From the NCBI GenBank assembly GCA_964609775.1, contig CAZSSJ010000002.1, positions 19,260 through 83,259 of the forward strand: 64,000 nucleotides of DNA, given 5' to 3'. The notes below the pieces were generated by a model. That model searched no databases, was not told the DNA's origin, and saw nothing but the letters and a program-made list of their open reading frames with translations. This DNA comes from an uncultured Gammaproteobacteria bacterium. GTDB taxonomy: Bacteria > Patescibacteriota > Microgenomatia > JAMCZE01. A program made the translations under genes and the position numbers. This document shows positions 15,768 through 61,011 of this stretch, in pieces. Position 1 is the stretch's first letter; each line of letters begins with the position of its first letter.

Positions 15768-15770
15768 TCT

Positions 15771-24859: not shown

Positions 24860-24866
24860 GACACCC

Positions 24867-31252: not shown

Positions 31253-31257
31253 AAGTT

Positions 31258-34478: not shown

Positions 34479-35122
34479 ACACCGAAGTATTTTCGAAACT
34501 GTTCATCATTTTCAATCCTTTCAGCCAGAATTAATCGGACCTCGCCATTAATTCCCAGGAAACTTCGGAGAAACTCGACTTGAGTCTCGCAAGGATAGGC
34601 ATGAATATAGACACTTTCCTGAAGTGGATAAAAGCCTGCGCTCCGAAGAATCCGTTGAAATCTGTCTCTGATTGACTTTTTGCTACTTTTTATATCGTAG
34701 AAAACGAGCCACCATTTATGATCCCATTTTGACGGTGGATCAATTTTCACCGATTCGATCGCAAACTGAAGAACTTTTGTTTTCCCCTTTTCCGTGATTT
34801 TGACAGTTTGGTAGTCTCCCATACCCTCGGTCTCAATTATTTTTTCCCTTTGTAAACGTCTAATTGTGTTTTGTAAATAGCGGCGGTTAAACAATTTCCA
34901 GTCATCCCAATCAGACCTATCTGGTTGAAAGAAAGTGAGCAGGCGAGTGCTTCGGGGTGAGGCGATGGCTAAAGCCAGACTAGAACCCGCTGCTAGAAGC
35001 AAGAGCACTTTTTTAATTTTTTCGTTACGCTCTCGGGCTTTGCTAGTGACCAGTTGTTTTAAGAGAAAATCACTCAGCTCTTTAGGTAGATCATGGGGAA
35101 GTGTCTCAGAACGGTTATCCAT
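34475..35122 (-). CDS. PaaX-family-like winged-helix transcriptional regulator (hypothetical)
   Basis: Middle segment IRRLQREKIIETEGMGDYQTVKITEKGKTKV is wHTH-like. The C-terminal KWDHKWWLVFYDIKSSKKSIRDRFQRILRSAGFYPLQESVY parallels PaaX (W-D-G-KWLLLLSEGLDKS...KKQLIWQGFGAL). This is the only minus-strand gene in the middle 60 kb. Its stop shares the CTAG with the convergent upstream gene. Confidence 0.5.
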   Translation of the reverse strand: MDNRSETLPHDLPKELSDFLLKQLVTSKARERNEKIKKVLLLLAAGSSLALAIASPRSTRLLTFFQPDRSDWDDWKLFNRRYLQNTIRRLQREKIIETEGMGDYQTVKITEKGKTKVLQFAIESVKIDPPSKWDHKWWLVFYDIKSSKKSIRDRFQRILRSAGFYPLQESVYIHAYPCETQVEFLRSFLGINGEVRLILAERIENDEQFRKYFGV

Positions 35123-35294
35123 AAGATGAATATAGCACCAAACCTACGCCATGGCGTTTTAATGATGATAACCGATTTTGTTAAACAATTAAAAGTTTTT
35201 AATCAAATCGGGGGAATTGAATTATTAAACTTCATGAATGCCTTTATGAATGTCATTTCCAAGCAGGTGAAATTCCAGAGCGTTCTGGAGAATT

Positions 35295-35316
35295 TTGACC
35301 AGATACTGTGTTAGAA
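35295..35316 (+). promoter_or_regulatory. candidate extended -10 promoter (TGtTAGAAT) for the downstream plus-strand operon, possibly a leaderless transcript
   Basis: TTGACC (35295-35300) and TGtTAGAAT (35308-35316) lie 9 nt upstream of ATG 35326 in a 203-nt AT-rich divergent intergenic region. The -35 spacing is too short, so only the extended -10 is credible. Confidence 0.25.
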
Positions 35317-35325
35317 TCTTAATAT

Positions 35326-36075
35326 ATGTCTAGCAAAAAGCCTAAAGTAATTGTCGTCATGCCGGCATACCACGCCGAAAAAACAATTGAAAAAACCTTT
35401 GCCGAAGTGCCGAAAGGTTTGGTCAATGAGATCATCCTTGTTGACGATGCCGGCGGCGACAAAACCATCGCTATTGCCAAAAAACTGGGAATCACTGTCT
35501 ATCAGCACTCTCACAATTTAGGTTATGGCGGCAACCAGAAAACTTGCTATTGGGAAGCCCTCAAAAGAAATCCCGACGTGGTCGTCATGCTCCATCCCGA
35601 CTATCAATATAATGGCAGCAAGATTAAAGGTCTGGTCGATCCAATTTTAAACGGTGACTATGACATGATGTTCGGCAGCCGAATCAAAAGTCGGGGCATG
35701 GCCCTGACCGGGGGAATGCCCAAGTCAAAATATTTTTCCAACCGCCTCTTCACCCTGTTTGCTAATATTCTCCTTGGCGAGAATCTCTCCGAGTACCTAA
35801 GCGGGCTTCGAGCCTACAGTCGGAAGTGCTTGGAAAGTGTGCCCTACCAAAGATTTTCTGACGACTTTGCTTTTGATCAACAGTTCACCGTTTCCGCCAT
35901 TGCCAAAAATCTTCGTATTGGCGAAATTCCCATCCCGACACGCTATCATGTCGAGCAACACACCCTTCCTTTAATTAGTTTTCGAGGAGTCAAATTTGTT
36001 GTCGAAAGTTACTGGATCATCTTTCTCTATCTTCTCCGAAAAGCAAATGTGTATAAAAGCAAAATTTTCGACTGA
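35326..36075 (+). CDS. family 2 glycosyltransferase, DPM1-like polyprenol-phosphate sugar synthase
   Basis: VVMPAYHAEKTI...LVDDAGGDKT...DMMFGSR. One C-terminal hydrophobic segment. Confidence 0.8.
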   Translation: MSSKKPKVIVVMPAYHAEKTIEKTFAEVPKGLVNEIILVDDAGGDKTIAIAKKLGITVYQHSHNLGYGGNQKTCYWEALKRNPDVVVMLHPDYQYNGSKIKGLVDPILNGDYDMMFGSRIKSRGMALTGGMPKSKYFSNRLFTLFANILLGENLSEYLSGLRAYSRKCLESVPYQRFSDDFAFDQQFTVSAIAKNLRIGEIPIPTRYHVEQHTLPLISFRGVKFVVESYWIIFLYLLRKANVYKSKIFD

Positions 36076-36081
36076 TCGTTT

Positions 36082-37539
36082 ATGTGGACGAAATTTTCCT
36101 CAGCAGCCTTGTTAATTTTGCTCATCTCCACCTCTCTTCATTTTTACGGCCGATCCTTCACCAACTTTTTCTTCCAGGACGATTTTTTCAATATCACCCT
36201 GTCTCAAAGTCAAAGCATTATTCAATCTTTTAACATTTTTTCTAAGCCGATACTTGACTTCTATTTCTTCCGACCGCTGACGACCCAGCTTTTTTGGGGC
36301 GTGACTTTTCCCGTCTTCGGGTGGAATGTCGCTCCATATCACCTAATCGTATCAATATTTTTTGCCATAAACATATTTTTCATCTATTGGCTATCAACGC
36401 TCCTGACAGACAAAAAGCCCATCGCTCTCTTAACCACATTCCTGTACGCCTTCTCCGCCACGCATTTCCATCGTCTGTTTTTTCTGTCACAGTTCCAAGA
36501 GATCGGCCTGACTACTTTTGTTCTACTGACAATAATATCCTATATTAAAAACAGCAAGCTTTCTTTAGTCTTTTTCATTCTCGCTTTGACAAGCAAGGAA
36601 ACTGCCGTTGTCACTCCAATCTTCCTCCTCGTCTTCAGTGTCCTATCAAGTCGCAAACAATACCGGCTTCTAGCACTGCATTTTCTAATCCTGGGAGTCT
36701 ACTTATTTCTTCGTTTCACCTTTTTTGGTTTTGCCTCTGGGGGCCCGTACACCTACGATTTTAATCCACTCCACGTCATCAATAACTATGTTTGGTACGG
36801 CCTTTGGGCCTTGGGCATCCCGGAGTCTTTCGTCAATTTGAAACTGTTTTTTGTCAACAGATATGATGATCTGGGACAGTGGCAATCGTTCTCGTTTATT
36901 AATCCCGATATATTCACTGCTTTTGGAATCTGGGGCGGGCCAATTATTCTTGTCTTCGCACTTTTGTTGTTAACTCTAATTCTAGCCCTAAACAAAAAAA
37001 ACTGGACCCATTTCTTCCGTCGAGAAAGCATTTTCGCCTCCATGATATTTATCATCTTCCTTTTGCCAGTTGCCTTCTTTCCTTTCCATAAATTTGCCTA
37101 CAGCTTAACACTTCCGGCCATAGGCCTGTCTCTGTTTCTGGCCAACCTACTTATCAATTTTTCTCTGCGTTTCCAAATCTTGTCCCTTGTCTTCTTCATT
37201 GCCCTCTCCTTTTTTACGACTCAATACAATGTTTCCGAGCACTGGGCAGTCAAGAAGGCGATAGTAGCCAAATTGGCTTGGGAATATTTCCGTCAAAACC
37301 ACCCGGAAAACATCACTGCGGACAACATTTATTTTCGAAATACTGACGCGCCCTATTGCTCGATTCTGAAAAATAAATTTAAACCCTCGCAGGAAGTGGC
37401 CTATGGTCTCGGCGGAGCCGATAGCCTCAGGCTTCTCTACAACAACCCAGAGTTGAAAGTTTATTTTGAAGACTTTGACGACAATCATCATTTGATGGCC
37501 GATTCTTTGATGATCGATTCTCGGCAGTTTTTGCCATGA
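36082..37539 (+). CDS. GT-C-like polytopic membrane protein (ArnT/PMT-like topology, family unassigned)
   Basis: About 12 TM helices. Acidic motif FFQDDFFNI after TM1. Confidence 0.5.
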   Translation: MWTKFSSAALLILLISTSLHFYGRSFTNFFFQDDFFNITLSQSQSIIQSFNIFSKPILDFYFFRPLTTQLFWGVTFPVFGWNVAPYHLIVSIFFAINIFFIYWLSTLLTDKKPIALLTTFLYAFSATHFHRLFFLSQFQEIGLTTFVLLTIISYIKNSKLSLVFFILALTSKETAVVTPIFLLVFSVLSSRKQYRLLALHFLILGVYLFLRFTFFGFASGGPYTYDFNPLHVINNYVWYGLWALGIPESFVNLKLFFVNRYDDLGQWQSFSFINPDIFTAFGIWGGPIILVFALLLLTLILALNKKNWTHFFRRESIFASMIFIIFLLPVAFFPFHKFAYSLTLPAIGLSLFLANLLINFSLRFQILSLVFFIALSFFTTQYNVSEHWAVKKAIVAKLAWEYFRQNHPENITADNIYFRNTDAPYCSILKNKFKPSQEVAYGLGGADSLRLLYNNPELKVYFEDFDDNHHLMADSLMIDSRQFLP

Positions 37540-39206
37540 AAGCCAACACCTTAGCGATCGTTATCATTATTTTCTTAGGGCTTTTTGCCATTCAGGCGCT
37601 CTTCACCCCCGGCTTCTACACGAGCCACGACGGCGCCACCCACGCTGCCCGGATTGCCAACTACTTCCTTGCCCTTGCAGACCACCAGTTTCCCCCCAGG
37701 TGGGCTCCGCTTCTTAATGGCGGGATGGGCTCGCCGATTTTTGTTTACATCTATCCCTTGCCCTATTTTCTCGGCGCGTTAGTTCACGCCATTGGGCTAT
37801 CTTTTACCGACAGTTTTAAAGCCATCCTTGGTCTGGCCTACATTGCTTCCGGAATAACTTTTTATATTTGGATGCGCAAACACTTTGCGGTCTGGTCTTC
37901 TCTTGCAGCGGCAGCAGTTTATCTGTTTGCTCCCTATCGCTTTTCCCTGTTGTTTGTTCGGGCTGCTTTTGCCGAAAGTATTGCCTACACTTTTGTTCCC
38001 CTGGTTTTTTTATCTATCGACCAAATGTTTTCCTCTAAAAATACGCGAAGATCAATTGCCTTCGGAGCAATGTCCACCAACCTTTTGCTACTGTCTCATA
38101 ATCTGGTAGCCTTCATCTTCTTGCCATTAGCCTTTTTGTATTCATTAGTCCTTTTCTGTCAAAGCAAAAAACTGTCAGCACTAATCAACTATTTTCTTTG
38201 CACCATCTTTGGATTTTTAATCTCTGCCTTTATCTACGTCCCGGACTTTCTAGAAAAAAAATACATCCGCTTTGACGAATTGATTAGTTATTATCAGAAT
38301 CACTTCGTCTATTTTTGGCAGTTCCTCCGCTCACCCTGGGACTATGGCTTTTCTTTCCTTGGTCCAGCTGACGCCATGAGTTTTCAAATCGGACTCGGCC
38401 AGCTTCTTGTACTGATTTTCTCACTGGTAATCTTGATCAGAATAATTATCTTCAAGAAGAAAGATAAACACTTCGCCAAGCTGATTTTCTTTTTAACCCT
38501 TTTTGCCGCTGCGGTGCTCTTAATGCTCGAAAGTCCCTTGAGTCGAATCCTCTGGAAAAACATTCCGGGACTCTCAACGATTGACTACCCCTGGCGGCTT
38601 TTGGGCATCACCACCTTTTCTCTGGCTGCTGTTTCAGGCGTTGTCGTCGACCAAAGTGGAAAAAGACTGAAAACGCTCCTGGCGACTGTCATTATTCTCG
38701 GAGTGCTCATTGCCAATCGCCACCATTTGCGCATTAATCAGCAAGTTTTCCTTCCTGATTCCCAATTTCTTTCCTACAGTGGTTCCGCGACCCATCTTGG
38801 CGAGTTTACCCCTGTCACTCGCGCCAGCTCAAAATTCATTCCTTTCCCCGACACCATCCAGGTCGTTTCCGGAAAAGCCACCATCGTCAAGCAAACAGAA
38901 AAGTCTGCAGGTAAAAAGTACCTCATCAATGCCTCGGAAAAGACCAAAATTCGCCTCAACACCCTCTATTTTCCCGGATGGCAAATTGCTCTTGATGGTA
39001 AAGTTCTGCGTTTGGAGACCGATTTCCAAATCACCGGGGACACCAATTTGAAAACTGACGTTGACCAGAGCGGACTTATATACGTCGACGTCTCTAAAGG
39101 TAAGCACGTGTTGACGGCTAAGTTCGCGGAAACTCCGGTGCGCCAGATAGCCGATTTCATGTCTCTCGGGTCGTTTGTTGTAGTATTAATCTTGCTTGTT
39201 ATCTAA
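37536..39206 (+). CDS. YfhO-related polytopic membrane protein (H-D...H...R / GQFP-RW family), paralog C
   Basis: FYTSHDGATHAARIANYFLALADHQFPPRWAPLLNGGMGSPIFVYIYPLPYFLG. C-terminal LYFPGWQIALDGKVLRLETDF. ATGA overlap upstream. Confidence 0.6.
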   Translation: MKANTLAIVIIIFLGLFAIQALFTPGFYTSHDGATHAARIANYFLALADHQFPPRWAPLLNGGMGSPIFVYIYPLPYFLGALVHAIGLSFTDSFKAILGLAYIASGITFYIWMRKHFAVWSSLAAAAVYLFAPYRFSLLFVRAAFAESIAYTFVPLVFLSIDQMFSSKNTRRSIAFGAMSTNLLLLSHNLVAFIFLPLAFLYSLVLFCQSKKLSALINYFLCTIFGFLISAFIYVPDFLEKKYIRFDELISYYQNHFVYFWQFLRSPWDYGFSFLGPADAMSFQIGLGQLLVLIFSLVILIRIIIFKKKDKHFAKLIFFLTLFAAAVLLMLESPLSRILWKNIPGLSTIDYPWRLLGITTFSLAAVSGVVVDQSGKRLKTLLATVIILGVLIANRHHLRINQQVFLPDSQFLSYSGSATHLGEFTPVTRASSKFIPFPDTIQVVSGKATIVKQTEKSAGKKYLINASEKTKIRLNTLYFPGWQIALDGKVLRLETDFQITGDTNLKTDVDQSGLIYVDVSKGKHVLTAKFAETPVRQIADFMSLGSFVVVLILLVI

Positions 39207-39212
39207 CAACCA

Positions 39213-39971
39213 ATGAAACTTTCCGTTGTCCTGGCCACTTTCAACGAGGAACAAAATATTGATCGCTGCCTCAAAGCCGTTTTCAAATGGGCTGACGAAA
39301 TTGTCGTTGTTGACGGTCGTTCCACTGACAAAACCATCGCTATTGCCCGAAAGTTCAAAGCCAGGATCATCGTCACAGATAATCCTCCGATGTTCCACAT
39401 CAATAAACAAAAAGCCATCGACGCGGCGAAAGGTGATTGGGTTTTGCAACTGGACGCTGATGAAGTTGTCACTCCCGAGCTTAAGAAAGAAATTGATTTC
39501 ACAATGAATAGTGATCCCGATGAAAATGGTTTTTGGATTCCCAGAAAAAATTACTTCCTTGGTAAGTTTCTGACTAAAGGGGGGGCCTATCCCGACTACA
39601 CTCTGCGCCTCTATCGCCGGACTAAAGGCCGCCTTCCTTGTAGGAGCGTTCATGAGCAAGCAGTCGTTGAAGGTAAGATCGGCTATCTAAAAAATCCCAT
39701 TTTGCACTATGCCGACCCCACTTTTGGCCGCTACATTGAAAGATTCAACCGCTACACTGATCTAGCCGCTCACAATGTTACCGGAGGCCTGCTGACAAAT
39801 CTTTTGTGGAAACCGCTTTTTGACCCTCTGCAAGGTTTTTTGCTCATCTACTTTCGTCACTTGGGCTTTCTCGACGGCTTTCCAGGATTTATCTGGGCCC
39901 TCTTTTCCGCCCTCAATTTTCCGATTGCATACTTTAAATCAATTGACATCAAAGAGGGGAGAGTGACCTAA
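39213..39971 (+). CDS. family 2 glycosyltransferase, WaaE/KdtX-like (paralog 3)
   Basis: LATFNEEQNIDRCLKAVFKWADEIVVVDGRSTDKT...GDWVLQLDADEVVT. Confidence 0.75.
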   Translation: MKLSVVLATFNEEQNIDRCLKAVFKWADEIVVVDGRSTDKTIAIARKFKARIIVTDNPPMFHINKQKAIDAAKGDWVLQLDADEVVTPELKKEIDFTMNSDPDENGFWIPRKNYFLGKFLTKGGAYPDYTLRLYRRTKGRLPCRSVHEQAVVEGKIGYLKNPILHYADPTFGRYIERFNRYTDLAAHNVTGGLLTNLLWKPLFDPLQGFLLIYFRHLGFLDGFPGFIWALFSALNFPIAYFKSIDIKEGRVT

Positions 39972-39972
39972 C

Positions 39973-41022
39973 TTGCGCCTTGGTTTTGTCCGGCCACCGA
40001 ATGCGGGGAATTTGATAAGAGGTGTCGGTACTTACGCTGATCACTTATATATTGCCTTGCAGAATGCTGGGGTGGGGGTGCATTGGCTTTCCCCGACATA
40101 CCCGGTGCTAAACGCCAGTAATTTCGACCTGATCCATTATCCCTATTTTGACCTCTTCTTTCTGACACAACCAATAACACTAGGTAAGTCAGTTATCACT
40201 GTTCATGATTTGACACCCTTAGTTCTTCCGAAATATTTCCCTGCAGGACCAAGAGGCCATCTTAAGTGGCAAGTCCAGAAAAATATCCTCCGAACTTCTT
40301 CGGCCGTCATCACCGTTTCCCAGGCTTCTAAAAAAGACATTGTCAACATAACTGGTTTGAAACCAGAAAAAATAATAGTTACTTACGAAGCAGCAGGCGA
40401 AAGTTTCCGGAAGCTAACCAGCTTGGCCCAGCTAAAGACCGTTAAAAATAAATTGGCCTTACCTGAAAAGTTTCTGCTTTATGTTGGTGACGTCAACGCC
40501 AATAAAAATATTCCCATGTTGCTTGAGGCCTTTGCGCAGTTTAAAAAAACTTCTCTCGGGGGAACCTTTTCCCTCGTGCTTGCCGGTGGAGCTTTCTTTA
40601 AAAAAGATCTTTTAGAGACAGAAAATATCCGGAGGTTGATCGAAGAGCTCAAGATTAAAAACGCCGTCATCCTTCCCGGTTTCGTGGAAACAAGCGACCT
40701 CGTCGGCCTCTATAATCTCGCCTCCGCCTACATTCAACCATCGCTCTATGAAGGTTTTGGTCTGCCGGTCTTGGAAGCCATGGCTTGCGGCACTCCGGTG
40801 ATCTGCGGACGAAACAGCAGCCTTCCTGAAGTGGCCGGGGACGCTGCTATCTATACAGACGTGACTAACGTAGCTGAATTTGCCCACACTATTACCTCGG
40901 TGGTCAGCTCTCCCAGGGATAAGTACACGCCAAAATGTCTTGCTCAGGCGGCCAAATTCAGCTGGGATAAAACCGCCAAGGAAACAATCGCTGTCTATGA
41001 GAAAGTTCTTAAAAACAAATAG
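39973..41022 (+). CDS. GT4 family glycosyltransferase
   Basis: TTG start 2 nt after the upstream stop. EGFGLPVLEAMACGTPVICGRNSSLPEV. Confidence 0.8.
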   Translation: MRLGFVRPPNAGNLIRGVGTYADHLYIALQNAGVGVHWLSPTYPVLNASNFDLIHYPYFDLFFLTQPITLGKSVITVHDLTPLVLPKYFPAGPRGHLKWQVQKNILRTSSAVITVSQASKKDIVNITGLKPEKIIVTYEAAGESFRKLTSLAQLKTVKNKLALPEKFLLYVGDVNANKNIPMLLEAFAQFKKTSLGGTFSLVLAGGAFFKKDLLETENIRRLIEELKIKNAVILPGFVETSDLVGLYNLASAYIQPSLYEGFGLPVLEAMACGTPVICGRNSSLPEVAGDAAIYTDVTNVAEFAHTITSVVSSPRDKYTPKCLAQAAKFSWDKTAKETIAVYEKVLKNK

Positions 41023-42100
41023 CTTTGTCATCACCGTCTTTGTCATTTGGCGCCTGGCGATGTTTCTCCTTGGCCTGCCGGGGTTTTCCATCCTGACCTT
41101 CAAAGCCAGCTTCCCCAAAATTGACGAGATGCTCATCGCCTCTGGCTTTCCTCAGTGGCTGTGGCAGTGGGGAAACTTCGACGGCGTGCACTATCTGGAC
41201 ATTGCCCAAAACGGCTATCACGGCTCTGGGCTCCAGGTCTTTTTCCCCGTCTTTCCGCTCCTGATAAAACTGGGCAGTTTCCTTACCGGCAACTACTTTC
41301 TCTCCGGTCTGGTGATCTCCAATTTGGCCATTTTGCTTGCGGGCATAACTTTATTTCAGCTTGTCAGCCGTGACTTCGACAACAAAACAGCCCGTTGGGC
41401 GGTCATCTTTTTGTTCGCCTTTCCCACTTCATTTTTCTTCGGCAGCGTCTATACCGAGTCGCTCTTTCTTCTTTTTCTCTTGCTCACTTTTCTCAAAACC
41501 GGCTGGCTTTCCGGGCTTTTCTCTTTTCTTGCCGGTGGAACCAGGTTAGTCGGAGCTTTTCTTACTCCGGTGCTGGTCGCTTTTCGACCAAGAAACTGGT
41601 GGGGGATTCTTGCTGGAGGCGGCATCGGACTTTATATCTCCTACTTAACACTAACTTTCGGCAATCCGTTCTATTTTCTAACCGGCCAAGGAGCCTTCAA
41701 AAACGCCAGGGCCAATTCTCTTGAGTCCTTAGTCCTTCCTCCGCAAGTGCTTTACCGTTACATCAAAATCTTAACCACCGCGAGTCCTGCCCACTATGAC
41801 TATTGGATTGCCGCACTCGAGTTGGCTGCTTTCATCTTTGGCCTCATCATAGTGCTTTACTTAACACTCAGGAAAAAAATGCCCGCTCCCTACCTCATTT
41901 TTTCCTTCCTGGCGCTTCTCCTCCCTAGCTTTTCCGGCACTCTGTCATCCATGCCCCGCTATCTATTGTCAATTTTCCCGATCTTTATCGGTTTAGCTAT
42001 AATCAAAAATAACTCTGTTAAAGTTGGCATCGTGACGCTTTTTACACTATTATTAGCCGCATTGACAATCCTTTTTACCCGAGGCTACTGGGTCAGTTGA
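40997..42100 (+). CDS. GT-C mannosyltransferase-like membrane protein, PIG-V (GT76)-like
   Basis: WGNFDGVHYLDIAQNGYHGSGLQVFFPVFP matches the W-D-x-x-H-[FY]-L-x-IA-x-x-GY...FFP-x-FP signature of PIG-V-type mannosyltransferases. About 9 TM helices. An alternative upstream start exists at 40880. Confidence 0.55.
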   Translation: MRKFLKTNSFVITVFVIWRLAMFLLGLPGFSILTFKASFPKIDEMLIASGFPQWLWQWGNFDGVHYLDIAQNGYHGSGLQVFFPVFPLLIKLGSFLTGNYFLSGLVISNLAILLAGITLFQLVSRDFDNKTARWAVIFLFAFPTSFFFGSVYTESLFLLFLLLTFLKTGWLSGLFSFLAGGTRLVGAFLTPVLVAFRPRNWWGILAGGGIGLYISYLTLTFGNPFYFLTGQGAFKNARANSLESLVLPPQVLYRYIKILTTASPAHYDYWIAALELAAFIFGLIIVLYLTLRKKMPAPYLIFSFLALLLPSFSGTLSSMPRYLLSIFPIFIGLAIIKNNSVKVGIVTLFTLLLAALTILFTRGYWVS

Positions 42101-42103
42101 CAC

Positions 42104-42784
42104 GTGCCAAAAATCCTAGTTGTCATCCCTGCTTTTAATGAACAAGCTACCTTGCTCTCCGTCCTATCCGACGTGTTAAAGAACATCCCGGCTGATGTAC
42201 TTGTCGTCAACGACGGGTCTTCTGATTCGACTAAAGATATAGCGCTTAAAAACAATGTCTTTGTGGTCTCCCACGTCGCCAACCGCGGTCTTGGCGCGGC
42301 CTTGGGAACCGGTTTTGAGTTTGCCAGGAAAAGAGATTATGACATTTTGGTCACTTTCGACGCGGATGGTCAACACACTTCGAAAGACGCCTTAAAACTC
42401 ATCCGGACAATCGACAAGGGGAGAGCAGATGTGGCTATCGGCAGCCGGCTTTTGACCAAAACTGCGATGCCTTTGGATCGAAAAGTGCTCAACTATCTGA
42501 GCGACCTGTTAACCTATATTTTCTATGGTGTCTGGACAACAGACTCCCAGTCCGGTCTGCGGGCTTTTAATAAGGAGGCAATTTCAGAAATTAAAATTAT
42601 GACTGACCGCATGGAGGTCAGCAGTGAATTTTTTAGAGAGATAAAACGCAATCATTTAACTTTTAAAGAAGTCGCCATTCAGGCAATCTACACTGATTAT
42701 AGTTTGTCAAAAGGCCAGGACAAAAAGGGTAATTGGAATGCTTTGTCGATTGGAGTTAAAATGCTCTTAAGGCTTTTTTCCTAA
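42104..42784 (+). CDS. family 2 glycosyltransferase, DPM1-like polyprenol-phosphate sugar synthase
   Basis: GTG start. VVIPAFNEQATL...VVNDGSSDST...VTFDADGQH. Confidence 0.8.
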   Translation: MPKILVVIPAFNEQATLLSVLSDVLKNIPADVLVVNDGSSDSTKDIALKNNVFVVSHVANRGLGAALGTGFEFARKRDYDILVTFDADGQHTSKDALKLIRTIDKGRADVAIGSRLLTKTAMPLDRKVLNYLSDLLTYIFYGVWTTDSQSGLRAFNKEAISEIKIMTDRMEVSSEFFREIKRNHLTFKEVAIQAIYTDYSLSKGQDKKGNWNALSIGVKMLLRLFS

Positions 42785-43129
42785 GTGACACTAATTCAAT
42801 TGCTACTATCGATCTTTCTGCTCTTTGCTCTCAGCCGGGTGATATTGCGCTTCCGTGGCGGCCAACTCTCACCCTTAGAATTCGCCTTTTGGTCGATCCT
42901 CTTCGTGGCAGCAATTTTTGGAATTTTTCTCCCCGAGCAAACGTCGCAACTGGCTAAAATATTAGGAATTGGTCGAGGAGCAGACCTGGTCGTTTATGTC
43001 TCAATTGTAATCATTTTCTACCTTGTTTTTAGACTCTATATTATGATCGAGAATCTCCGTCACGAAATAACCGAGATTGTCAGAAAAATAGCTCTGGAAA
43101 ATGTCATCAAATCGAAAACAAAAAAGTAA
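42785..43129 (+). CDS. small 3-4 TM membrane protein, DUF2304-like (frequent partner of DPM1-like GT2)
   Basis: GTG start immediately after the upstream stop. GIGRGADLVVYVSIVIIFYLVFRLY motif. 114 aa. Confidence 0.5.
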   Translation: MTLIQLLLSIFLLFALSRVILRFRGGQLSPLEFAFWSILFVAAIFGIFLPEQTSQLAKILGIGRGADLVVYVSIVIIFYLVFRLYIMIENLRHEITEIVRKIALENVIKSKTKK

Positions 43130-44235
43130 TGAAAATTTTGTGGATCACTGAGTTTTTCCCCGCAACTTCGGCCGGAGAAATAACGGGGGGAGTTGAAGCG
43201 CGCTGTTTTTATGTCAGCCGATACCTTAAAAAGAGGGGAGTAGAACTAGAAGTCATTACCCGTCCCACCGGAGGAGAAACATGGTATCATGCTTCCCTCT
43301 CTTCAATCCCCAATAGGATCCTTTTTACCCTCAAAGCGATCATTAAAGGACTTGGAACTGACTTTGATCTGGTCGAGGGCTCGAACTCCGCCACCTATCC
43401 AGTTGCTGCCCTTTTGGGACTCCTTAAAAGAAAGCCAATCGTTTTTTGGTACCCCGACGTCTTCCAAGGAAGTTGGGTCGCCAAAGTGGGTTTAGTGGGC
43501 ATTCTTGGTAATATCTCAGACTGGATACTTTTCAAGATGCCAAACGTTCACTACATTGCCATCAGCCAGACAACGAAGCGTAAGCTCATGTCTAAGGGCG
43601 TAAGCGAGCTTAAAATTACCGTTATCTATTGTGGCATTGAACCAAAGGAGATATCCGCAATTAAAACTAATGGTCAGAAGACCACCCTCTCAGCCGTCAG
43701 CCGCTTAGTTGCCTATAAACACCTCGACGAGTTGATTAAAGCCGGGCAAATTCTCGTCCAAAAGCATCCCGACCTCAGCGTTAGCATTATTGGCCAAGGG
43801 CCGGAGGAACAAAAGTTAAAAAACCTGGCCAAAAGAATCGGGGTGGCAAAAAATATCAATTTTTTGGGATTTGTTAAAGACCACAAAGACGTTCTCGGAG
43901 TGGTCAATAAGTCCCAAGTTTTTGTGCACCCCTCGACTGTAGAAGGCTTTGGCATTGCTTTAATGGAGGCGGCAGCGCTGGGCGTTCCCTATGTTGCCGC
44001 TCGTCTTCCTATAGTCACGGAAGTGACTCGGACTGGCCAAGGAGGACTGCTGTTTGCAGCCGGAAATCACCACGATTTAGCTTCGAAAATTGACCAGCTC
44101 TTAACCTCTCGAAAGTTATATTTAACCAAGGCCAAACAAGCTGCTGCCCTCGCCGCCCACTACTCTTGGCATGAAGCCGCAAAGCAAACAGAGCGTCTTT
44201 ACAGGAAACGTGTCCAGAACAAAGCGATAGCATGA
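43129..44235 (+). CDS. GT4 family glycosyltransferase
   Basis: EGFGIALMEAAALGVPYVAARLPIVTEV. Confidence 0.8.
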   Translation: MKILWITEFFPATSAGEITGGVEARCFYVSRYLKKRGVELEVITRPTGGETWYHASLSSIPNRILFTLKAIIKGLGTDFDLVEGSNSATYPVAALLGLLKRKPIVFWYPDVFQGSWVAKVGLVGILGNISDWILFKMPNVHYIAISQTTKRKLMSKGVSELKITVIYCGIEPKEISAIKTNGQKTTLSAVSRLVAYKHLDELIKAGQILVQKHPDLSVSIIGQGPEEQKLKNLAKRIGVAKNINFLGFVKDHKDVLGVVNKSQVFVHPSTVEGFGIALMEAAALGVPYVAARLPIVTEVTRTGQGGLLFAAGNHHDLASKIDQLLTSRKLYLTKAKQAAALAAHYSWHEAAKQTERLYRKRVQNKAIA

Positions 44236-45302
44236 AAGTGGATACGGATATGAAAATAGTAATTCTCACTGATGCTTGGACACCAATTTGGGGCGGTGGC
44301 CAAAAACATATTTGGGAGGTTTCTAAACGTTTAACTACTAATTACGATTGTCAAATAGATATTCTAGTCCCCAATCTTGTCAACGACGGTAAAACTCACC
44401 CGGATGAGGAAAAGTATTTTTCTGACAAATTGGTTATTCGCCGGTTGGGCAAGCCATTCGTTTTTCCTGATATCTTTGGCCGGAGTTTGTTTCTCCTCTT
44501 CTGCTTATCTTGGCCACTGACCCACGATTATGACATCATCCACGCCCACGCCTATCAATTTGTCCTCTTCCCGTTGTTAAGACTACTTCGTCCTCGCACT
44601 AAGCTTGTCTACACTCTCCACGGCGCCGGGGTCAACTTGCTCGGTGGCGCAGTCCTAAACACCTTCAAAATTCCCAAGTTAATCTGGGAGTTTTTTGTTC
44701 ATCACTTCCCTTATGATCTGTTGACGACAGTTGCCAAAAGCACCATCATCGCTCCTGTAGCTGCCAAAAAACTGGCCGTTGTCCCTAACGGTGTCGATAC
44801 CACATTGTTCGATAAGTTTAAGGAGCATAAGGATCCCCACAAGTTTAAGATTCTTTGGGTGGGGAGAATTGCCGATCCCGTCAAGGGCGTCAAGTATCTT
44901 GAGGAAGCAGTGGAGGAAATACAGCGCACTGATCCTAGAGTCAAGCTATCTTTAGTCACAAACAAATTTGGGGACGATTTGATAAAAGAATATAAATCAA
45001 GTGACTTGTTCGTTTTGCCATCCCTATCAGAAGGGCTACCATTAACTCTTCTTGAGGCGATGGCCGCCAAATTGCCCGTTGTGGTCACCGATGTTGGTGA
45101 TTGTAAAATGATTGTCAACTCAGCCCATTGCGGTGAAGTCGTCCCGCCAGCAAGCTCTTCTTCACTCGCGGCCGCAATCTTCAGAATGATTGACAGCAAG
45201 GATCGTCAAAAACTCGGTCTAAACGGTTACAATTTTGTCAAGGGGCACTACCTTTGGGACGAAATCGCCTCGAAGATCTACAGGGCATATCAAAATGTTT
45301 AA
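44232..45302 (+). CDS. GT4 family glycosyltransferase
   Basis: LPSLSEGLPLTLLEAMAAKLPVVVTDVGD. ATGA overlap upstream. An alternative start is at 44250. Confidence 0.8.
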   Translation: MKVDTDMKIVILTDAWTPIWGGGQKHIWEVSKRLTTNYDCQIDILVPNLVNDGKTHPDEEKYFSDKLVIRRLGKPFVFPDIFGRSLFLLFCLSWPLTHDYDIIHAHAYQFVLFPLLRLLRPRTKLVYTLHGAGVNLLGGAVLNTFKIPKLIWEFFVHHFPYDLLTTVAKSTIIAPVAAKKLAVVPNGVDTTLFDKFKEHKDPHKFKILWVGRIADPVKGVKYLEEAVEEIQRTDPRVKLSLVTNKFGDDLIKEYKSSDLFVLPSLSEGLPLTLLEAMAAKLPVVVTDVGDCKMIVNSAHCGEVVPPASSSSLAAAIFRMIDSKDRQKLGLNGYNFVKGHYLWDEIASKIYRAYQNV

Positions 45303-46365
45303 AATTTTCTCGGCCGGCCTTGCCATTATTTTGATTCTTTTTGGTCTTCCCAACCTGGAATCCAAAAACATTACCAAAGCCAAACTGCTCATTGCCGACG
45401 TTTCTAAGGAGCCAGAACTCGAAACCTACACAACGGATATGAAAGCCTATCTACGAACTTATTACCAACTTAGGGCGGGCAAACCATATTATGAATCTCT
45501 TGGCAAGTCAGTCGTTGGTGATGCCACCAGAGACAATCTTCCCGGTGAAATCTGGGGTTGGAAACTACCGTTTATTTTTTATTTTTGGTCACTTTTACCA
45601 GGACCATCGGGAGTAGGTGTCTATGTCATTTTTATTTTTCTTCTCAGCGCCACCCTTTTTGCAAGTTTTAAGCTTTCCCAAAGAATAATTGGCAAATATG
45701 CACTTTTCTCTCCCTATCTTTTGGTTGGTTATTTTATTTTGCCATTGACAGAAATAACCATATTTCAGGTAGAATGGTGGGCCGTCTGCTTTTTCATCAT
45801 CGCCCTTGCGTTTTTGGTTTATGACAGAAAACTTTTTGCTGGAATGTTCTTTATGACTTCAATTTTCACTCGTGAACTTTTTGTCTTCCACCTAGCGATG
45901 CTCGCCCTTGTGTGTTTCCTTCTTCGAAGACGCCGCTATTTGTTGCCTCTTGTCATTCCACCCATACTCCTTATTCTCTTCTATTCATTCTATCACTTAG
46001 GCCAGGTCTATAGGTTCGAAAATTTCGGCCCGCTGACCACCTGGTGGCGCCAAGGCATCGATCGGGGCTGGCACCTTGTTAGACCAACGTTGAGTTTTTC
46101 CTCGCAGAACTATTTTTTCTTTTTTCTTCATCCTTTCAGGTTCTTTCTGCTCTTTGCTACAATTGGCCTACTAAGTCTTCTTATCAAAAATAAAGACAAG
46201 CTGTTGCCACTTTTGGCCCTTTTCTCCTTCCTGCCTTTTTTCTTGTTTATTTTTTTCTTCGGCATCCAAACAAAATGGCAGGATTACTGGGGAATATATT
46301 ATTTGCCGCTAGCCATTATTTTCGCACCAACCATTTTAACTTTGTTTCCCTATGCCAAAAAATGA
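45295..46365 (+). CDS. polytopic membrane protein, unknown function (possible GT-C-like)
   Basis: About 10 hydrophobic helices and no recognisable motif. The ORF extends upstream to 45235. Confidence 0.45.
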   Translation: MFKIFSAGLAIILILFGLPNLESKNITKAKLLIADVSKEPELETYTTDMKAYLRTYYQLRAGKPYYESLGKSVVGDATRDNLPGEIWGWKLPFIFYFWSLLPGPSGVGVYVIFIFLLSATLFASFKLSQRIIGKYALFSPYLLVGYFILPLTEITIFQVEWWAVCFFIIALAFLVYDRKLFAGMFFMTSIFTRELFVFHLAMLALVCFLLRRRRYLLPLVIPPILLILFYSFYHLGQVYRFENFGPLTTWWRQGIDRGWHLVRPTLSFSSQNYFFFFLHPFRFFLLFATIGLLSLLIKNKDKLLPLLALFSFLPFFLFIFFFGIQTKWQDYWGIYYLPLAIIFAPTILTLFPYAKK

Positions 46366-47593
46366 CTTTGCCCCACTTTTTTTAATACTTCTTTCATCAA
46401 TAATGCTTCTATATCAAGTGGCTAAGCCGTTTTGGGGCCATCATGATTTTAATAATGCTTTCTACGGCAACATGGCTCGAAATCTTGTCAGATTTTCAAT
46501 TCTTGATACCAAGCTGGCACAGGTGACCAGTTCTGGAAGACCTTCGGTGTCTGATTTTTCCTTCCATACCCATCACCCCCCATTGCTCATCTGGGCCCTG
46601 GGGGTGTCATATCTACTATTCGGGGTCACGGAATTGTCTACTCGTCTAGTTCCGATTGCCTTTTCCGTCGGCACACTTTTTACTTTTTATATGTTGATAA
46701 AAAAAACCGTCAACTCAAAAACCGCCGTCATTGCCTCCTTCTTTTGGATCGTTACCCCGCTCTATATCTATTTTGGCAAGATGGCCGTTCAGGAAATTCC
46801 GGTGCTGTTTTTCGTCTTGCTCGGACTGTATTCATATGCCGCAGGAAAGGTCAAACTCCTCTATTTTTCCACCTTCTTGGCCGCTCTTTCCGGCTGGCCG
46901 GGCTACTATTTAATCCCCACAATTTGGCTCTGGTCACTACTTCGGACTGGCAAAATCGCTAAAAACATAACTGCTTTGCCAATTGTCGCCATCGGTGTTT
47001 TTGCTTTCCATCTTTTCCAAAACCATGTCGTGACCGGCAGCACCATCGGCGGGGGATTCCTCAACTCTTTCGTCCTGCGAAGCTCTGACATTCCCCTTTT
47101 CGAATACGCAAGAAAGGAACTCAGTTGGATCTTGGCCTATTTTACAAAACCGTTCGTCACACTCGCCGCCGGAGGTTTAATCATCAGCCTTATCCATAGA
47201 AAAGCGTTAATTTTGGTTCTTTTTTTCTTCGGAATCCTTCATCTGATTTTTTTTCGCCAGGCAGCTTTTCGCCACGACTATCTGATTTATTATCTTCTCC
47301 CTGCCGTCTCACTGGGGGCAGCGCTCTTTTTAACCCACATGATAAGAAATAAATTCTTCCTTACTTCCACCACTCTTTTGATCATCGCCTTTTCACTGTC
47401 CCTGAGCTTTCGGTTCACCGGTGCCCTTCAGGGAAGCAATTATGGTCGAATCGCCGTGCAGGCCGGCAAAAACATCGCCACCAAAACCTCTCCGAACGAA
47501 AGGGTAACGCTAATAAATAAAGAAATATATAATAATTTCGACTGGCAGGTCAGATTCTACGCTGATCGCAACGTCACCATTATCCCTGAATGA
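46352..47593 (+). CDS. GT39/ArnT-like glycosyltransferase family membrane protein (divergent paralog 8)
   Basis: FWGHHDFNNAFYGNMARNL...PPLLIWALGVSYLLFG. ArnT-like architecture. Confidence 0.6.
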   Translation: MPKNDFAPLFLILLSSIMLLYQVAKPFWGHHDFNNAFYGNMARNLVRFSILDTKLAQVTSSGRPSVSDFSFHTHHPPLLIWALGVSYLLFGVTELSTRLVPIAFSVGTLFTFYMLIKKTVNSKTAVIASFFWIVTPLYIYFGKMAVQEIPVLFFVLLGLYSYAAGKVKLLYFSTFLAALSGWPGYYLIPTIWLWSLLRTGKIAKNITALPIVAIGVFAFHLFQNHVVTGSTIGGGFLNSFVLRSSDIPLFEYARKELSWILAYFTKPFVTLAAGGLIISLIHRKALILVLFFFGILHLIFFRQAAFRHDYLIYYLLPAVSLGAALFLTHMIRNKFFLTSTTLLIIAFSLSLSFRFTGALQGSNYGRIAVQAGKNIATKTSPNERVTLINKEIYNNFDWQVRFYADRNVTIIPE

Positions 47594-48354
47594 AAGCTGA
47601 TATCACCGTTTTGATGAGCGTGTACAACAACGAACGAACCGTTGGCAAGAGCATAGAAAGTATCCTGTGGCAAACCTATCCGCACTTTGTTTTTGTCATT
47701 ATTAATGACGGTTCGACTGACAATTCATCAAGCCAGATAAGGAAATTCAGTGACAAAAGAATAGTATATATAGACAAAAATAAAAATCTGGGCCTCACCA
47801 GAAGGCTTAACGAGCAACTGGATAATGTAAGTACTCATTATGTCGCTCGAATGGATGCCGATGACATTAGCCGTCCAGACCGCCTGGAGAAACAGCACAA
47901 CTTTATGACCACTCACCAAAGCTACGGGGCCGTCGGCAGCAATTTTAAAAGAGTCAATGCCCAAGGAAGTCTTCTGTGGGAAAGTGATTTCCCTCTTTCC
48001 TCAAAAGACATCAGGCAAAGAATTCTTTTGAAAAATCCCTTCAAGCACTCGATTCTCTTTTTTCGAACGGAAATTCTTAAAACATTGGGGGGATACAACG
48101 AAAAGTTTAAATATAGCCAGGACTACGACCTAATGCTCCGTCTGACTGCCAAATATCCTGTCGCCAATCTAAAGGAATGCTTACTCGTTGACAATCACCT
48201 TGACTCTGCCCTTTCCCAAACCCACCGTTTTGACCAAGCCAAATTTGCCACCTTGGCCCAAATAAATGCTCTCAGGCGGGGAGACTATCCGCTCTTTCAA
48301 AGCGTTTTCTTGTTTCGTTCTTTGGGGTATCTTTTTAAATCATGGTTAAGTTAG
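47590..48354 (+). CDS. family 2 glycosyltransferase (WcaA-like)
   Basis: ITVLMSVYNNERTVGKSIESILWQTY...IINDGSTDNS...ARMDADDIS. Confidence 0.8.
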   Translation: MKADITVLMSVYNNERTVGKSIESILWQTYPHFVFVIINDGSTDNSSSQIRKFSDKRIVYIDKNKNLGLTRRLNEQLDNVSTHYVARMDADDISRPDRLEKQHNFMTTHQSYGAVGSNFKRVNAQGSLLWESDFPLSSKDIRQRILLKNPFKHSILFFRTEILKTLGGYNEKFKYSQDYDLMLRLTAKYPVANLKECLLVDNHLDSALSQTHRFDQAKFATLAQINALRRGDYPLFQSVFLFRSLGYLFKSWLS

Positions 48355-49349
48355 TCAATTACGAACTTGAGTCCATTCCCGTCCCCTTTCGCCTCTCCTG
48401 GGGCAAACTGGGCTATTCCCGGCATGTCTATGTGACTGTCGAAAACGAAAAGGGGGCAAAGGGTCGGGGCGAAGGGGTGCTGTACAAAACCACGCATCTA
48501 GAACTACTGCCATATCTTGAGAATAGATTTACTCTCGATTTGGAGAGACTAGCCGCCTTCGAACCAGCGCTTGCCTTTGCCGTAGACACCGCTCATCTTG
48601 ACCTAAAAGGGAAAATTTTAGTCGTGCCGCCTAACCCCTCTGTCGTTCGCGAAATCTTTATGGAAGACCAGGATCTGGAACAATCTGTCAAAGAGATAGC
48701 AACTCAACACACAAGCGCGATTAAACTAAAAGTCGGGGCGGGAGTAGAGAATGACAAAAAGACCCTTGTTCAGGTTCACCACCTCACCAAGGGCAAGATC
48801 AAAATTCACCTCGACGCCAATCGGGCATATAATTTAAAAGACGCCTTAGAGTTGGCCAGTTTTGCCAGCGCTAGGGGAGTGACTCTTTTTGAGGAACCGG
48901 TCTCTGGAGGCTTTCCTATCGTCGGAGAATTTAAACGGGCATCCAATCTGCCGGTGATGCTTGATGAAAGCATCCAGTCTGCGGCCGATCTGGAAAGTGC
49001 CATTAGAGAAAAATGCTTCGACATCCTAAATATTAAACTCAGCCGGCTGGGCGGTATAACCTTAGCCCAAAGGTACGTTCAGCGCTGCACTCAAGCCGGG
49101 CTAAGAATCTATCTTGGCTGTAGTGAAGAGCTAGAAACGGGCACCCGAGCAATTTTCACTTTGGCAAAATCAACAAAAAATCTTTATGCGGTTGAGGGGC
49201 TGGGCTTCGAAAGATTAGCCGGTCGGGAGGGCTTCCACTACAGTCTTGGAGAAGGTAGTCGGCGACTCTTTTTACTCAAAGAGTTTTCTGGTCTTTGGGC
49301 CACCAGAATTGAAAATTGCCTTAATTACACACTAGCGAAGATAAGGTAA
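48342..49349 (+). CDS. enolase-superfamily enzyme, MR/MLE family (dipeptide-epimerase / OSBS-like)
   Basis: K-x-K (AIKLKVG), HLDANRAYN (Asp), LFEEPV (Glu), MLDESI (Asp) and DILNIKLSRLGG (Lys) are the canonical MLE-subgroup catalytic set. Confidence 0.75.
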   Translation: MVKLVNYELESIPVPFRLSWGKLGYSRHVYVTVENEKGAKGRGEGVLYKTTHLELLPYLENRFTLDLERLAAFEPALAFAVDTAHLDLKGKILVVPPNPSVVREIFMEDQDLEQSVKEIATQHTSAIKLKVGAGVENDKKTLVQVHHLTKGKIKIHLDANRAYNLKDALELASFASARGVTLFEEPVSGGFPIVGEFKRASNLPVMLDESIQSAADLESAIREKCFDILNIKLSRLGGITLAQRYVQRCTQAGLRIYLGCSEELETGTRAIFTLAKSTKNLYAVEGLGFERLAGREGFHYSLGEGSRRLFLLKEFSGLWATRIENCLNYTLAKIR

Positions 49350-57284: not shown

Positions 57285-57293
57285 ACTTTTGCT

Positions 57294-59520: not shown

Positions 59521-59532
59521 TTTGCCATCCCT

Positions 59533-60258: not shown

Positions 60259-60276
60259 TTACTTGAGTTAATACCT

Positions 60277-60915: not shown

Positions 60916-60966
60916 GTTCGAGGCGTTGCGAGAGAAAAGAAACTGGCGAAGCCAAAACGAAAGAGA

Positions 60967-60986
60967 CCTCGGGCGTAAGCCCGAGG
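60967..60986 (+). terminator. GC-rich hairpin (8-bp stem CCTCGGGC/GCCCGAGG with GTAA tetraloop) in a 96-nt intergenic spacer. Possible terminator or RNA structural element.
   Basis: Perfect inverted repeat cctcgggc-gtaa-gcccgagg. The downstream U-tract is weak (aguuuc), so intrinsic-terminator status is uncertain. Confidence 0.3.
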
Positions 60987-61011
60987 AGTTTCATACAATT
61001 AAAATAATCAG

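Follow-up and report, generated by a model that had tools for sequence, protein, structure and literature searches.

A PIG-V-like GT-C gene of a Microgenomates bacterium probably belongs to a GacI/GacJ/GacL-type transmembrane glycosylation system

Only two synthases partnered by a DUF2304 protein have been characterised, GacI and PpgS, and both pairs, GacI/GacJ and PpgS/Rv3632, lead to polyprenyl-P-HexNAc. GacJ is a binding partner of GacI, whose Km for Und-P it lowers, Rv3632 stimulates PpgS, and GacI/GacJ have previously been assayed in E. coli membranes. In the Gac system, a TM-less GT2 stands directly before a ~113-aa, 3-TM DUF2304 protein and is joined by a GT-C of the PMT_2 type (GacL), in a cluster that also encodes an ABC exporter and glycosyltransferases that build chains in the cytoplasm. 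PpgS (Rv3631), a polyprenyl-phospho-GalNAc synthase, serves together with Rv3632 and Rv3779 in the GalN decoration of arabinogalactan in Mycobacterium tuberculosis, where a GT-C transfers from polyprenyl-P-HexNAc; in M. smegmatis, PpgS was no substitute for the mannose-donor synthase. The Shigella/Salmonella GtrA/GtrB/Gtr* and ArnC/ArnE-F/ArnT systems likewise combine a lipid-phosphate-sugar synthase, a small flippase and a GT-C. The donor and GT-C chemistry of GPI and PIM/LM synthesis is common to many bacterial systems, and a 2021 review table of GT-C families contains YfhO, PMT_2, Scs3p and unassigned proteins, with no PF04188 member.

We analysed a 64-kb stretch of DNA (the window) from a still uncultured member of the Microgenomates (candidate phyla radiation) in groundwater, in which three adjacent genes encode a PIG-V-like GT-C, a GT2 and a DUF2304 protein. 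Bacteria of this radiation live attached to host cells, and to our knowledge their cell envelopes are almost unstudied. The ~50 genes of the window encode 18 GT-C-like proteins and four GT2s of the lipid-phosphate-sugar synthase type, and profile searches detected nine GT4 genes, eight with clear matches and one with a weak match, none of which fitted a specific NCBIfam equivalog. The original prediction had read this locus as a GPI/PIM-like toolkit, and its domain observations, the many GT4s included, were all reproduced with tools at E-values far past chance. [quoted passage not shown]

The PIG-V-like GT-C-fold membrane glycosyltransferase (40997..42100, + strand; 367 aa) has an ATG start that agrees with an NCBI entry of identical sequence, the 367-aa protein UY21_C0001G0042 (Microgenomates group bacterium GW2011_GWA1_48_10). 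A profile search assigned it to PF04188 (Mannosyl_trans2, PIG-V) (33.3 bits, gathering cut-off 22.4; E 4.6e-8), in line with the PIG-V-type call made earlier, and many of its homologues carry a precomputed PF04188 match. The match was limited to residues 45-162, equivalent to profile positions 45-174 of 443, whereas human PIG-V itself scored 710.6 bits over positions 1-443. Alignment with human PIG-V by hhalign (93% probability, E 3e-7, 160 columns, 28% identity) paired GT-C residues 28-187 with PIG-V residues 28-207, and nothing further aligned. Within this span, the motif WGNFDGVHYLDIAQNGY...FFPVFP aligned with HWDAEHFLFIAEHGY...FFPGFP of human PIG-V, and NFDGVHYLDIAQNGY aligned with HWDAEHFLFIAEHGY, demonstrating that the acidic motif of the first extracytoplasmic loop is present; a D/ExE motif between TM1 and TM2 is listed for PIG-V (PMC6056205). 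The homology to PIG-V/Gpi18 (GPI mannosyltransferase II, CAZy GT76) comprises the first-loop (W/N)-x-D-x-x-H-(F/Y)-L-x-I-A-x-x-G-Y ... FFPxFP signature and the three or four helices after it. D62, H65 and Y66 were invariant across 59 homologues, and we propose from the sequence that Asp62 (NFDGVHY) is the catalytic residue. In contrast, the C-terminal half of the window GT-C, which is 126 aa shorter than PIG-V, was unalignable, and homology over the full PIG-V domain (~440 residues) was not found. The fold itself is generic, standing similarly near to ALG12, AglB, Pmt4 and ArnT as to GPI-MT1 or PimE.

A PpgS/GacI-type GT2 (42104..42784, + strand; 226 aa) starts 3 nt past the GT-C stop; it carries a DAD motif, matches PF00535 with 88.5 bits and is predicted from its sequence to be a polyprenyl-phosphate-sugar synthase. 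Its best NCBIfam match was PpgS NF058614 (147.2 bits, positions 3-209 of 226), a score below the equivalog cut-off of 370 bits, so that the protein falls into the broad PpgS class rather than being an orthologue, and GalNAc specificity is not to be assumed. Weaker matches were obtained with AglJ (88 bits), the haloarchaeal Dol-P-hexose transferase (55 bits) and ArnC (33 bits), and in the PDB with ArnC and with Pyrococcus DPMS, the latter over residues 3-131 only (43.5 bits). An earlier description of this GT2 as DPM1-like was right about the GT2 family and the lipid-phosphate-sugar class, but the scores place the protein with PpgS rather than DPMS. No C-terminal TM helices were predicted in it, whereas GtrB and ArnC have their own; a DUF2304 protein is present instead. 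This small membrane protein of the GacJ/Rv3632 family (42785..43129, + strand; 114 aa) follows with an intergenic gap of zero nt, has three predicted TM helices and matches PF10066 over its full length (positions 2-104 of 106, 75.7 bits), bearing out the DUF2304-like call. By analogy with GacJ and Rv3632, it is predicted to partner the GT2 at the membrane and to activate it, and the same two precedents make HexNAc our guess for the donor sugar. The interval 40997..42784 named in the original prediction covers the GT-C and GT2 genes and excludes the DUF2304 gene.

The locus holds a synthase-class GT2 of the GT-A fold, lacking TM helices and adjacent to a DUF2304 gene, and a genetically linked GT-C; a review sets out exactly such an architecture, in which a cytoplasmic GT-A, a separate TM protein and a GT-C are joined by a flippase (PMC8035078). 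As in the Gac system, an ABC exporter and cytoplasmic glycosyltransferases are encoded in the same cluster; the locus differs from that system in that its GT-C is of the PF04188/PIG-V-like type and in that the module contains neither a Wzx flippase nor rhamnan genes. The PpgS system shares with it the DUF2304 partner and the best-scoring synthase model, and the orthologous modules of Curtissbacteria include NAD-dependent epimerases, comparable to Rv3634c in the neighbourhood of Rv3631/2; however, the window itself has no epimerase, its GT2 is not an orthologue of PpgS and its 367-aa GT-C is PIG-V-like.

Synteny was counted among GTDB species representatives in 80 related loci, of which 62 were evaluable upstream and 57 downstream. 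The order GT2–GT4–GT-C–GT2–DUF2304–GT4–GT4 was kept across Microgenomates, being seen also in L001, L002 and L004, and in the window the seven genes are spaced from a 26-nt overlap up to a 3-nt gap. Upstream, an orthologue of the cytoplasmic GT2a (39213..39971, + strand; 252 aa, PF00535 76.4 bits, no predicted TM helix) was found within 4.5 kb of the GT-C in 59/62 loci, and GT4a (39973..41022, + strand; PF00534 115.6 bits, no NCBIfam equivalog at its cut-off) stood directly upstream in 58/62, its 3' end overlapping the GT-C start by 26 nt in the window. Downstream, 52 of the 57 loci had a synthase-type GT2 within 4.5 kb, and the GT2+DUF2304 pair was present in 41, at orthologue grade in only 29. 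Many related loci continued after DUF2304 with orthologues of GT4b (43129..44235, + strand; PF00534 129.4 bits; 1-nt overlap with the DUF2304 gene) and then GT4c (44232..45302, + strand; PF00534 86.2 bits; 4-nt overlap with GT4b). A 122-aa SMR-family protein (PF00893, 31.4 bits against a cut-off of 23.7) lay directly after the GT-C in 15/80 loci; it resembles ArnE/F and is a candidate flippase. The window's own module has no dedicated flippase, and the only MOP flippase of the window (13423..14877) lies 26 kb upstream of the module.

Two further genes recur upstream in many related loci. The first gene of the transcription unit encodes a second lipid-phosphate-sugar synthase-like GT2, of the AglJ/Dol-P-hexose type (35326..36075, + strand; PF00535 65.6 bits; AglJ 70 bits, Dol-P-hexose transferase 53 bits, PpgS 45 bits). 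The other encodes a PTPS_related GT-C-like membrane protein (37536..39206, + strand; PF10131 52.9 bits), and a natural fusion of a PTPS_related and a PIG-V-like protein was found (P0301, 980 aa); the PTPS_related protein is probably a partner GT-C working on the same acceptor.

From these family and fold assignments, the operon packing and the gene order, we infer the donor lipid, its flipping and the acceptor as follows. With the 3-TM DUF2304 protein keeping it at the membrane and activating it, the soluble GT2 would load polyprenyl phosphate with the sugar of a nucleotide sugar at the cytoplasmic face, and the lipid-phosphate-sugar would then be moved to the outer face, a step to which the SMR-family protein of the orthologous loci may correspond. 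There, the GT-C would pass the sugar, by means of the invariant Asp62, to an acceptor glycan. A surface glycopolymer or oligosaccharide is the likeliest acceptor; its cytoplasmic assembly would fall to the co-conserved GT2a, GT4a, GT4b and GT4c, and the neighbouring PTPS_related GT-C would probably lengthen it as well. An ABC exporter (56472..58574, + strand), made up of Wzm (56472..57284; PF01061 69.8 bits) and Wzt (57294..58574; PF00005 78 bits; Wzt_C PF14524 weak, 24.1 bits, under the cut-off of 30.4), is a candidate route of the acceptor glycan to the outer face; the link is weak, as only 2/80 related loci had the exporter no more than 6 kb from the module.

Systems of this kind are already known, and a PIG-V-like GT-C within one extends the catalogue of bacterial extracytoplasmic GT-Cs; the conserved seven-gene module offers a concrete, testable entry to the envelopes of the candidate phyla radiation. 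A much wider view, which we regard as unlikely, is that Microgenomates build much of their surface glycan or lipoglycan outside the membrane, as in mycobacterial LM/LAM and arabinogalactan, with 18 GT-C-like enzymes fed by four GT2s, and that the bacterial family (17,050 clusters) could be the prokaryotic source of the catalytic half of eukaryotic PIG-V. Neither an initiating phosphoglycosyltransferase nor an LCP ligase was found within the window, and the lack of the former makes a membrane-lipid anchor formally possible, both in this view and in a GPI/PIM-like one.

The GT-C could alternatively handle a polyprenyl-diphosphate oligosaccharide made by GT2a and GT4a, as a polymerase, ligase or oligosaccharyltransferase-like enzyme, while the GT2/DUF2304 pair feeds a neighbouring GT-C (45235..46365 or 46352..47593). 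The coupling of GT2a and GT4a to the GT-C, overlap included, is tighter than that of the GT2+DUF2304 pair, and several loci have a PMT_2 GT-C past GT4c, so the pair could indeed serve one of these neighbours. However, the retention of a synthase-type GT2 downstream of the GT-C in nearly all evaluable loci, together with the SMR-like candidate flippase set between the GT-C and this GT2 in 15 loci, argues against this alternative, and the PIG-V-like protein has no soluble C-terminal domain of the oligosaccharyltransferase type. PIG-V, its closest sequence family, uses a monophosphate donor. We consequently judge this alternative improbable.

Equally unlikely in our estimate is protein glycosylation by the GT-C, with S-layer, pilin or secreted proteins as acceptors in place of a polysaccharide, on the model of PMT O-mannosyltransferases or Streptococcus mutans Pgf. 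A sub-threshold PMT_2 match at GT-C residues 84-166 is consistent with this idea, as are the nine PMT_2-like proteins of the window and a PgfS-like GtrB (15771..16700; 249 bits to PgfS) with its own C-terminal TM helices. Yet the GT-C always occurs amid cytoplasmic GT2s and GT4s resembling glycan-chain builders, no gene for a candidate acceptor protein is conserved beside it, and the 367-aa protein is nearly all helical membrane core, without a PMT-style soluble extracytoplasmic domain (e.g. MIR).

The transmembrane glycosylation reading also fits better than a phosphatidylinositol-anchored (GPI- or PIM/LM-like) oligomannoside, for which PIG-L would deacetylate lipid-linked GlcNAc and the GT-C would add mannose, with polyprenyl-P-mannose made by the GT2: despite the true N-terminal homology to PIG-V, the intact PIG-L motif and a GT87 (PimE-family) Pfam match at 28399..29778 (30.4 bits, cut-off 25), this is very unlikely, since the PIG-V homology ends at residue 187, the GT2 resembles PpgS, which gives no mannose donors in vivo, rather than DPM1, none of the 80 related loci had the PIG-L gene, the ~50 window genes and the 10 kb downstream yielded no domain of a PI synthase or inositol-phosphate synthase, other GPI pathway partners being likewise absent, and the GT87 protein showed no sequence match to the solved PimE. 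On the genes of the window and its flank, the toolkit reading was not borne out; of the proposed parallel, only the general chemistry stood, namely a GT2-made lipid-phosphate-sugar donor and a GT-C acting outside the membrane. The GPI/PIM analogy is attractive but misleading, the resemblance being only partial, and the label 'Gpi18-like mannosyltransferase' on thousands of bacterial proteins is no evidence for GPI-like lipids or mannose.

The PIG-L/LmbE-family deacetylase (60277..60915, + strand) was itself recovered as predicted, with 60.2 bits to PF02585 (cut-off 28.2) and an intact metal-binding AHPDDE motif (VVAHPDDESLW). Its assignment to one toolkit with the GT-C did not hold. It fell outside the bacillithiol and mycothiol enzymes (BshB1 25.8 bits, cut-off 182.5), and no PDB relative was found; among 5.8 billion proteins, 11 homologues were detected, all distant, the nearest sharing 35% identity across 59% of the query. 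NeuB, CTP_transf_3 (CMP-sugar transferase) and PhyH were present in the downstream flank of the window (L085) and, with methyltransferases, in two of the three homologue loci examined (L086 and L087). We therefore judge that the deacetylase lies outside the GT-C module, in a separate strain-specific NeuB/CMP-sugar-type module, and its context points to a nucleotide-sugar pathway rather than lipid-linked GlcNAc. The third homologue locus (L088) contained GT4s and methyltransferases instead.

The product of 40997..42100 was searched against Pfam, and the predicted PIG-V-type domain was recovered (PF04188, 33.3 bits against a cut-off of 22.4), the match being limited to residues 45-162, or positions 45-174 of the 443-position profile. 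For comparison, a 493-aa sequence that we take to be human PIG-V was used as reference only once a Pfam search had shown it to match PF04188 along the entire profile (710.6 bits). The length agrees with that of human PIG-V in PMC6056205. Alignment by hhalign of 59 homologues of the window protein (40-73% identity) with this reference gave 93% probability (E 3e-7, 28% identity, 160 columns) and paired residues 28-187 with residues 28-207 of PIG-V; the C-terminal half did not align. The aligned blocks, window protein first, were NFDGVHYLDIAQNGY..QVFFPVFP with HWDAEHFLFIAEHGY..FAFFPGFP, FPTSFFFGSVYTESLF with SPANVFLAAGYSEALF, and GGTRLVG with TGVRSNG. D62, H65 and Y66 were invariant across the 59 homologues. 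A Lys/Arg-rich N-terminus leads into the first helix, and D62 is in the loop beyond that helix; this would be the usual site of the GT-C catalytic Asp. The AF2 model was confident (pLDDT 96, pTM 0.94), and PDB searches with the sequence and the family profile returned no solved GT-C, such structures being found by fold comparison only. The partial PF04188 match and the unaligned C-terminal half thus confine the likeness to the catalytic N-terminal half, and the protein is a GT-C whose nearest named sequence family is PIG-V.

This 367-aa protein is identical to the 'hypothetical protein' UY21_C0001G0042 of Microgenomates group bacterium GW2011_GWA1_48_10, a candidate-phyla-radiation (CPR) genome. 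Its family is large, with 17,050 representatives (50% identity) at an E-value limit of 1e-3 and 3,191 at a limit of 1e-30. Literature on COG5542, PF04188, GT76, and Microgenomates glycosyltransferases and cell envelope yielded no characterised bacterial member: the PF04188 literature was eukaryotic only, that on GT76 gave CAZy counts only, and none was found on COG5542 or on the Microgenomates topic. The GT-C subfamily is not yet characterised in bacteria, and it sits in a strikingly GT-C-rich CPR locus.

Directly downstream, the GT2 (42104..42784; PF00535, 88.5 bits) and DUF2304 (42785..43129; PF10066, 75.7 bits) calls were both reproduced. The GT2 carries a DAD motif and has no predicted C-terminal TM helix, and the DUF2304 protein is predicted to span the membrane with three TM helices. 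The top curated model for the GT2 was that of the M. tuberculosis polyprenyl-phospho-GalNAc synthase PpgS (147 bits, positions 3-209 of 226, under the equivalog cut-off of 370), followed by AglJ (88 bits), Dol-P-hexose transferase (55) and ArnC (33). The label 'DPM1-like' fits poorly, as the Pyrococcus DPMS from PDB scored 43.5 bits against 147 for PpgS. Moreover, PpgS was unable to substitute for the polyprenyl-P-mannose synthase in M. smegmatis (PMC3485146), which disfavours reading the GT2 as a DPM1 equivalent.

The pair resembles characterised systems. GacJ and Rv3632 both belong to the DUF2304 family (bioRxiv 10.1101/180810). [quoted passage not shown] As with GacI, GacJ and GacL, the window combines a GT2, a three-TM DUF2304 protein as its predicted partner, and a GT-C. 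The review PMC8035078 describes an architecture of this type (cytoplasmic GT-A, separate TM protein, flippase and GT-C). The GT-C table of that review lists YfhO, PMT_2, Scs3p or no domain, with no PF04188 member. The module is probably a known kind of system, built around a PIG-V-like GT-C.

A genome scan with the 59-homologue alignment identified 378 relatives, and the ORFs of their 80 best loci were searched with the window's proteins, counting evaluable loci. Among these best 80, the GT4 corresponding to 39973..41022 lay directly 5' of the GT-C in 58 of 62 loci, and the GT2 corresponding to 39213..39971 was upstream in 59 of 62. Within 4.5 kb downstream, 52/57 loci had a synthase-type GT2 and 41/57 a GT2-DUF2304 pair (29 of orthologue grade). 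GT4 genes corresponding to 43129..44235 and 44232..45302 commonly came next, and precomputed Pfam labels gave the same gene order in related loci L001, L002 and L004. In 15 of the 80 best loci, a 122-aa protein lay directly 3' of the GT-C (e.g. L002 7229..7597 and L004 7117..7485). As it passes the gathering scores of SMR (31.4 bits versus 23.7) and EamA, it is a candidate lipid-sugar flippase by analogy with ArnE/F, which, with Rv3789, are proposed lipid-sugar flippases; the window lacks it. A NAD-dependent epimerase is inserted in Curtissbacteria loci, though not in the window, recalling Rv3634c near Rv3631/2 in M. tuberculosis. Many relatives' records are titled Patescibacteria or lineages thereof; many other GTDB records, among L006-L082, bear 'uncultured Gammaproteobacteria' or 'Pseudomonadales' titles (e.g. 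CAZXMM010000001.1, HK-STAS-PATE-15). The latter share the Microgenomates-type gene order, and their titles are therefore probably placeholders or wrong labels.

The most likely reading of these features is a three-step scheme. The GT2 and DUF2304 protein would make a polyprenyl-phosphate-sugar at the cytoplasmic face, the lipid-sugar would be flipped (the window's module has no dedicated flippase), and the PIG-V-like GT-C would attach the sugar at the outer face to a glycan presumably built by the co-conserved GT2 and three GT4s. The two characterised synthases with a DUF2304 partner prompt the guess that the sugar is a HexNAc. Alternatively, but with low probability, the GT-C could use a diphosphate-linked oligosaccharide, with the GT2-DUF2304 pair serving a neighbouring GT-C (45235..46365 or 46352..47593). 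A PTPS_related GT-C is often 5' of the PIG-V-like gene in related loci and is encoded at 37536..39206 in the window, and P0301, a 980-aa homologue, is a natural fusion of a PTPS_related GT-C (N-terminal) to a PIG-V-like domain (C-terminal). This adjacency and fusion suggest that both GT-Cs share one substrate. P0292, P0296 and P0300 are also long proteins with a C-terminal PIG-V-like domain.

By Pfam and NCBIfam, the window's genes encode neither an initiating phosphoglycosyltransferase nor an LCP ligase, and no domain of a PI synthase or an inositol-phosphate synthase. Transfer to protein by the GT-C has an equally low probability to that of the diphosphate-linked donor. The domain observations of the original prediction were all reproduced and its interpretation was partly supported; its PI-anchored, GPI/PIM-like glycolipid is the least probable of these three rivals.

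The deacetylase at 60277..60915 had been counted in the same gene cluster. It is a PIG-L/LmbE protein as proposed (PF02585, 60.2 bits; AHPDDE present), but PIG-L was found in none of the 80 best GT-C loci and has NeuB-type neighbours instead. No curated equivalog matched (BshB1 25.8 bits versus a cut-off of 182.5), PDB gave no sequence match, and among 5.8 billion proteins there were only 11 homologues besides itself, the nearest with 35% identity across 59% of the query. Of three contexts of such homologues, two (L086, L087) contained NeuB, CTP_transf_3, PhyH, methyltransferases and sugar-nucleotide enzymes, with NeuB fused to AP_endonuc_2 in L087; the third (L088) contained GT4s and methyltransferases. 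The downstream flank of the window contig (L085 11996..16100) encodes a HAD hydrolase, CTP_transf_3, PhyH and a NeuB+AP_endonuc_2 fusion. Absence from the GT-C loci and these contexts place PIG-L outside the conserved GT-C module; it is part of a strain-specific module devoted to a sugar of nonulosonic-acid or similar type, beside Wzm/Wzt (56472..58574). The subfamily occurs with the fusion, CTP_transf_3, PhyH and methyltransferases in window 58552..63588 and its downstream flank, and in L086 and L087, which are unrelated metagenomic contigs. This co-occurrence suggests that a nonulosonic-acid-like sugar pathway includes an uncharacterised step of N-deacetylation. In M. tuberculosis, GalNAc must undergo deacetylation at some point of the GalN pathway. 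Deacetylation by PIG-L of a module-made polyprenyl-P-HexNAc is unlikely, since conservation of the module does not extend to PIG-L, which adjoins NeuB-type genes.

Pfam and NCBIfam scans of all non-spurious ORFs of at least 150 aa, plus the 114-aa DUF2304 gene, identified 18 polytopic GT-C-like proteins, made up of four YfhO, nine PMT_2-like (six of which exceed the gathering score), three PTPS_related and single GT87 and PIG-V-like proteins. Three further polytopic proteins without a Pfam family (36082..37539, 45235..46365 and 16645..18378) had 11-14 predicted TM segments; the 12-TM protein at about 45235..46365 matched only, and weakly, an NCBIfam 'cell surface glycopolymer formation' model, and its single-sequence AF2 model was poor (pLDDT 49.6). 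With 18 assignable and three other proteins in 64 kb, the density over 358..47593 is extraordinary. YfhO paralogues lie in tandem at 1854..8616 (37-47% identity), as do PMT_2 paralogues at 23183..34478 (31-41% identity), interrupted by the GT87 protein (28399..29778); none of the 21 polytopic proteins is a paralogue of the PIG-V-like one. The window also encodes eight GT2s, eight or nine GT4s, an Acyl_transf_3 protein, several methyltransferases and one PIG-L protein. Synthase-type GT2s numbered four. That at 15771..16700 is a canonical lipid-P-sugar synthase of the GtrB type and carries a TM tail itself (265 bits to Synechocystis GtrB 5EKP, 249 to PgfS, 151 to ArnC); it adjoins a MOP/Wzx flippase (13423..14877) and a further GT2; TM-less synthase-like GT2s also occur at 22554..23237, just 3' of a YfhO gene, and at 35326..36075.

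Nearly all genes lie on the plus strand, with overlaps or few-base gaps between neighbours, and large spacings occur only after 26402 (407 nt), 34478 (847 nt) and 62154 (213 nt). Rfam detected no RNA family in the window, and terminator-like sites were not in excess (17 versus 13.5 expected from shuffles), which left the ends of the transcription units unmapped. The 847-nt break splits the locus into two units and holds a minus-strand gene (34475..35122), the only one breaking up the glycan gene array, for a PaaX_M/Cas2-like protein with a weak winged-helix match, which may regulate the locus. A second minus-strand gene, for a HAD hydrolase (63007..63588), lies at the 3' end of the window. Within the glycan cluster, 48342..49349 encodes an enolase-superfamily (MR_MLE_C) protein, whose best matches, both weak, were L-Ala-D/L-Glu epimerase and o-succinylbenzoate synthase models.
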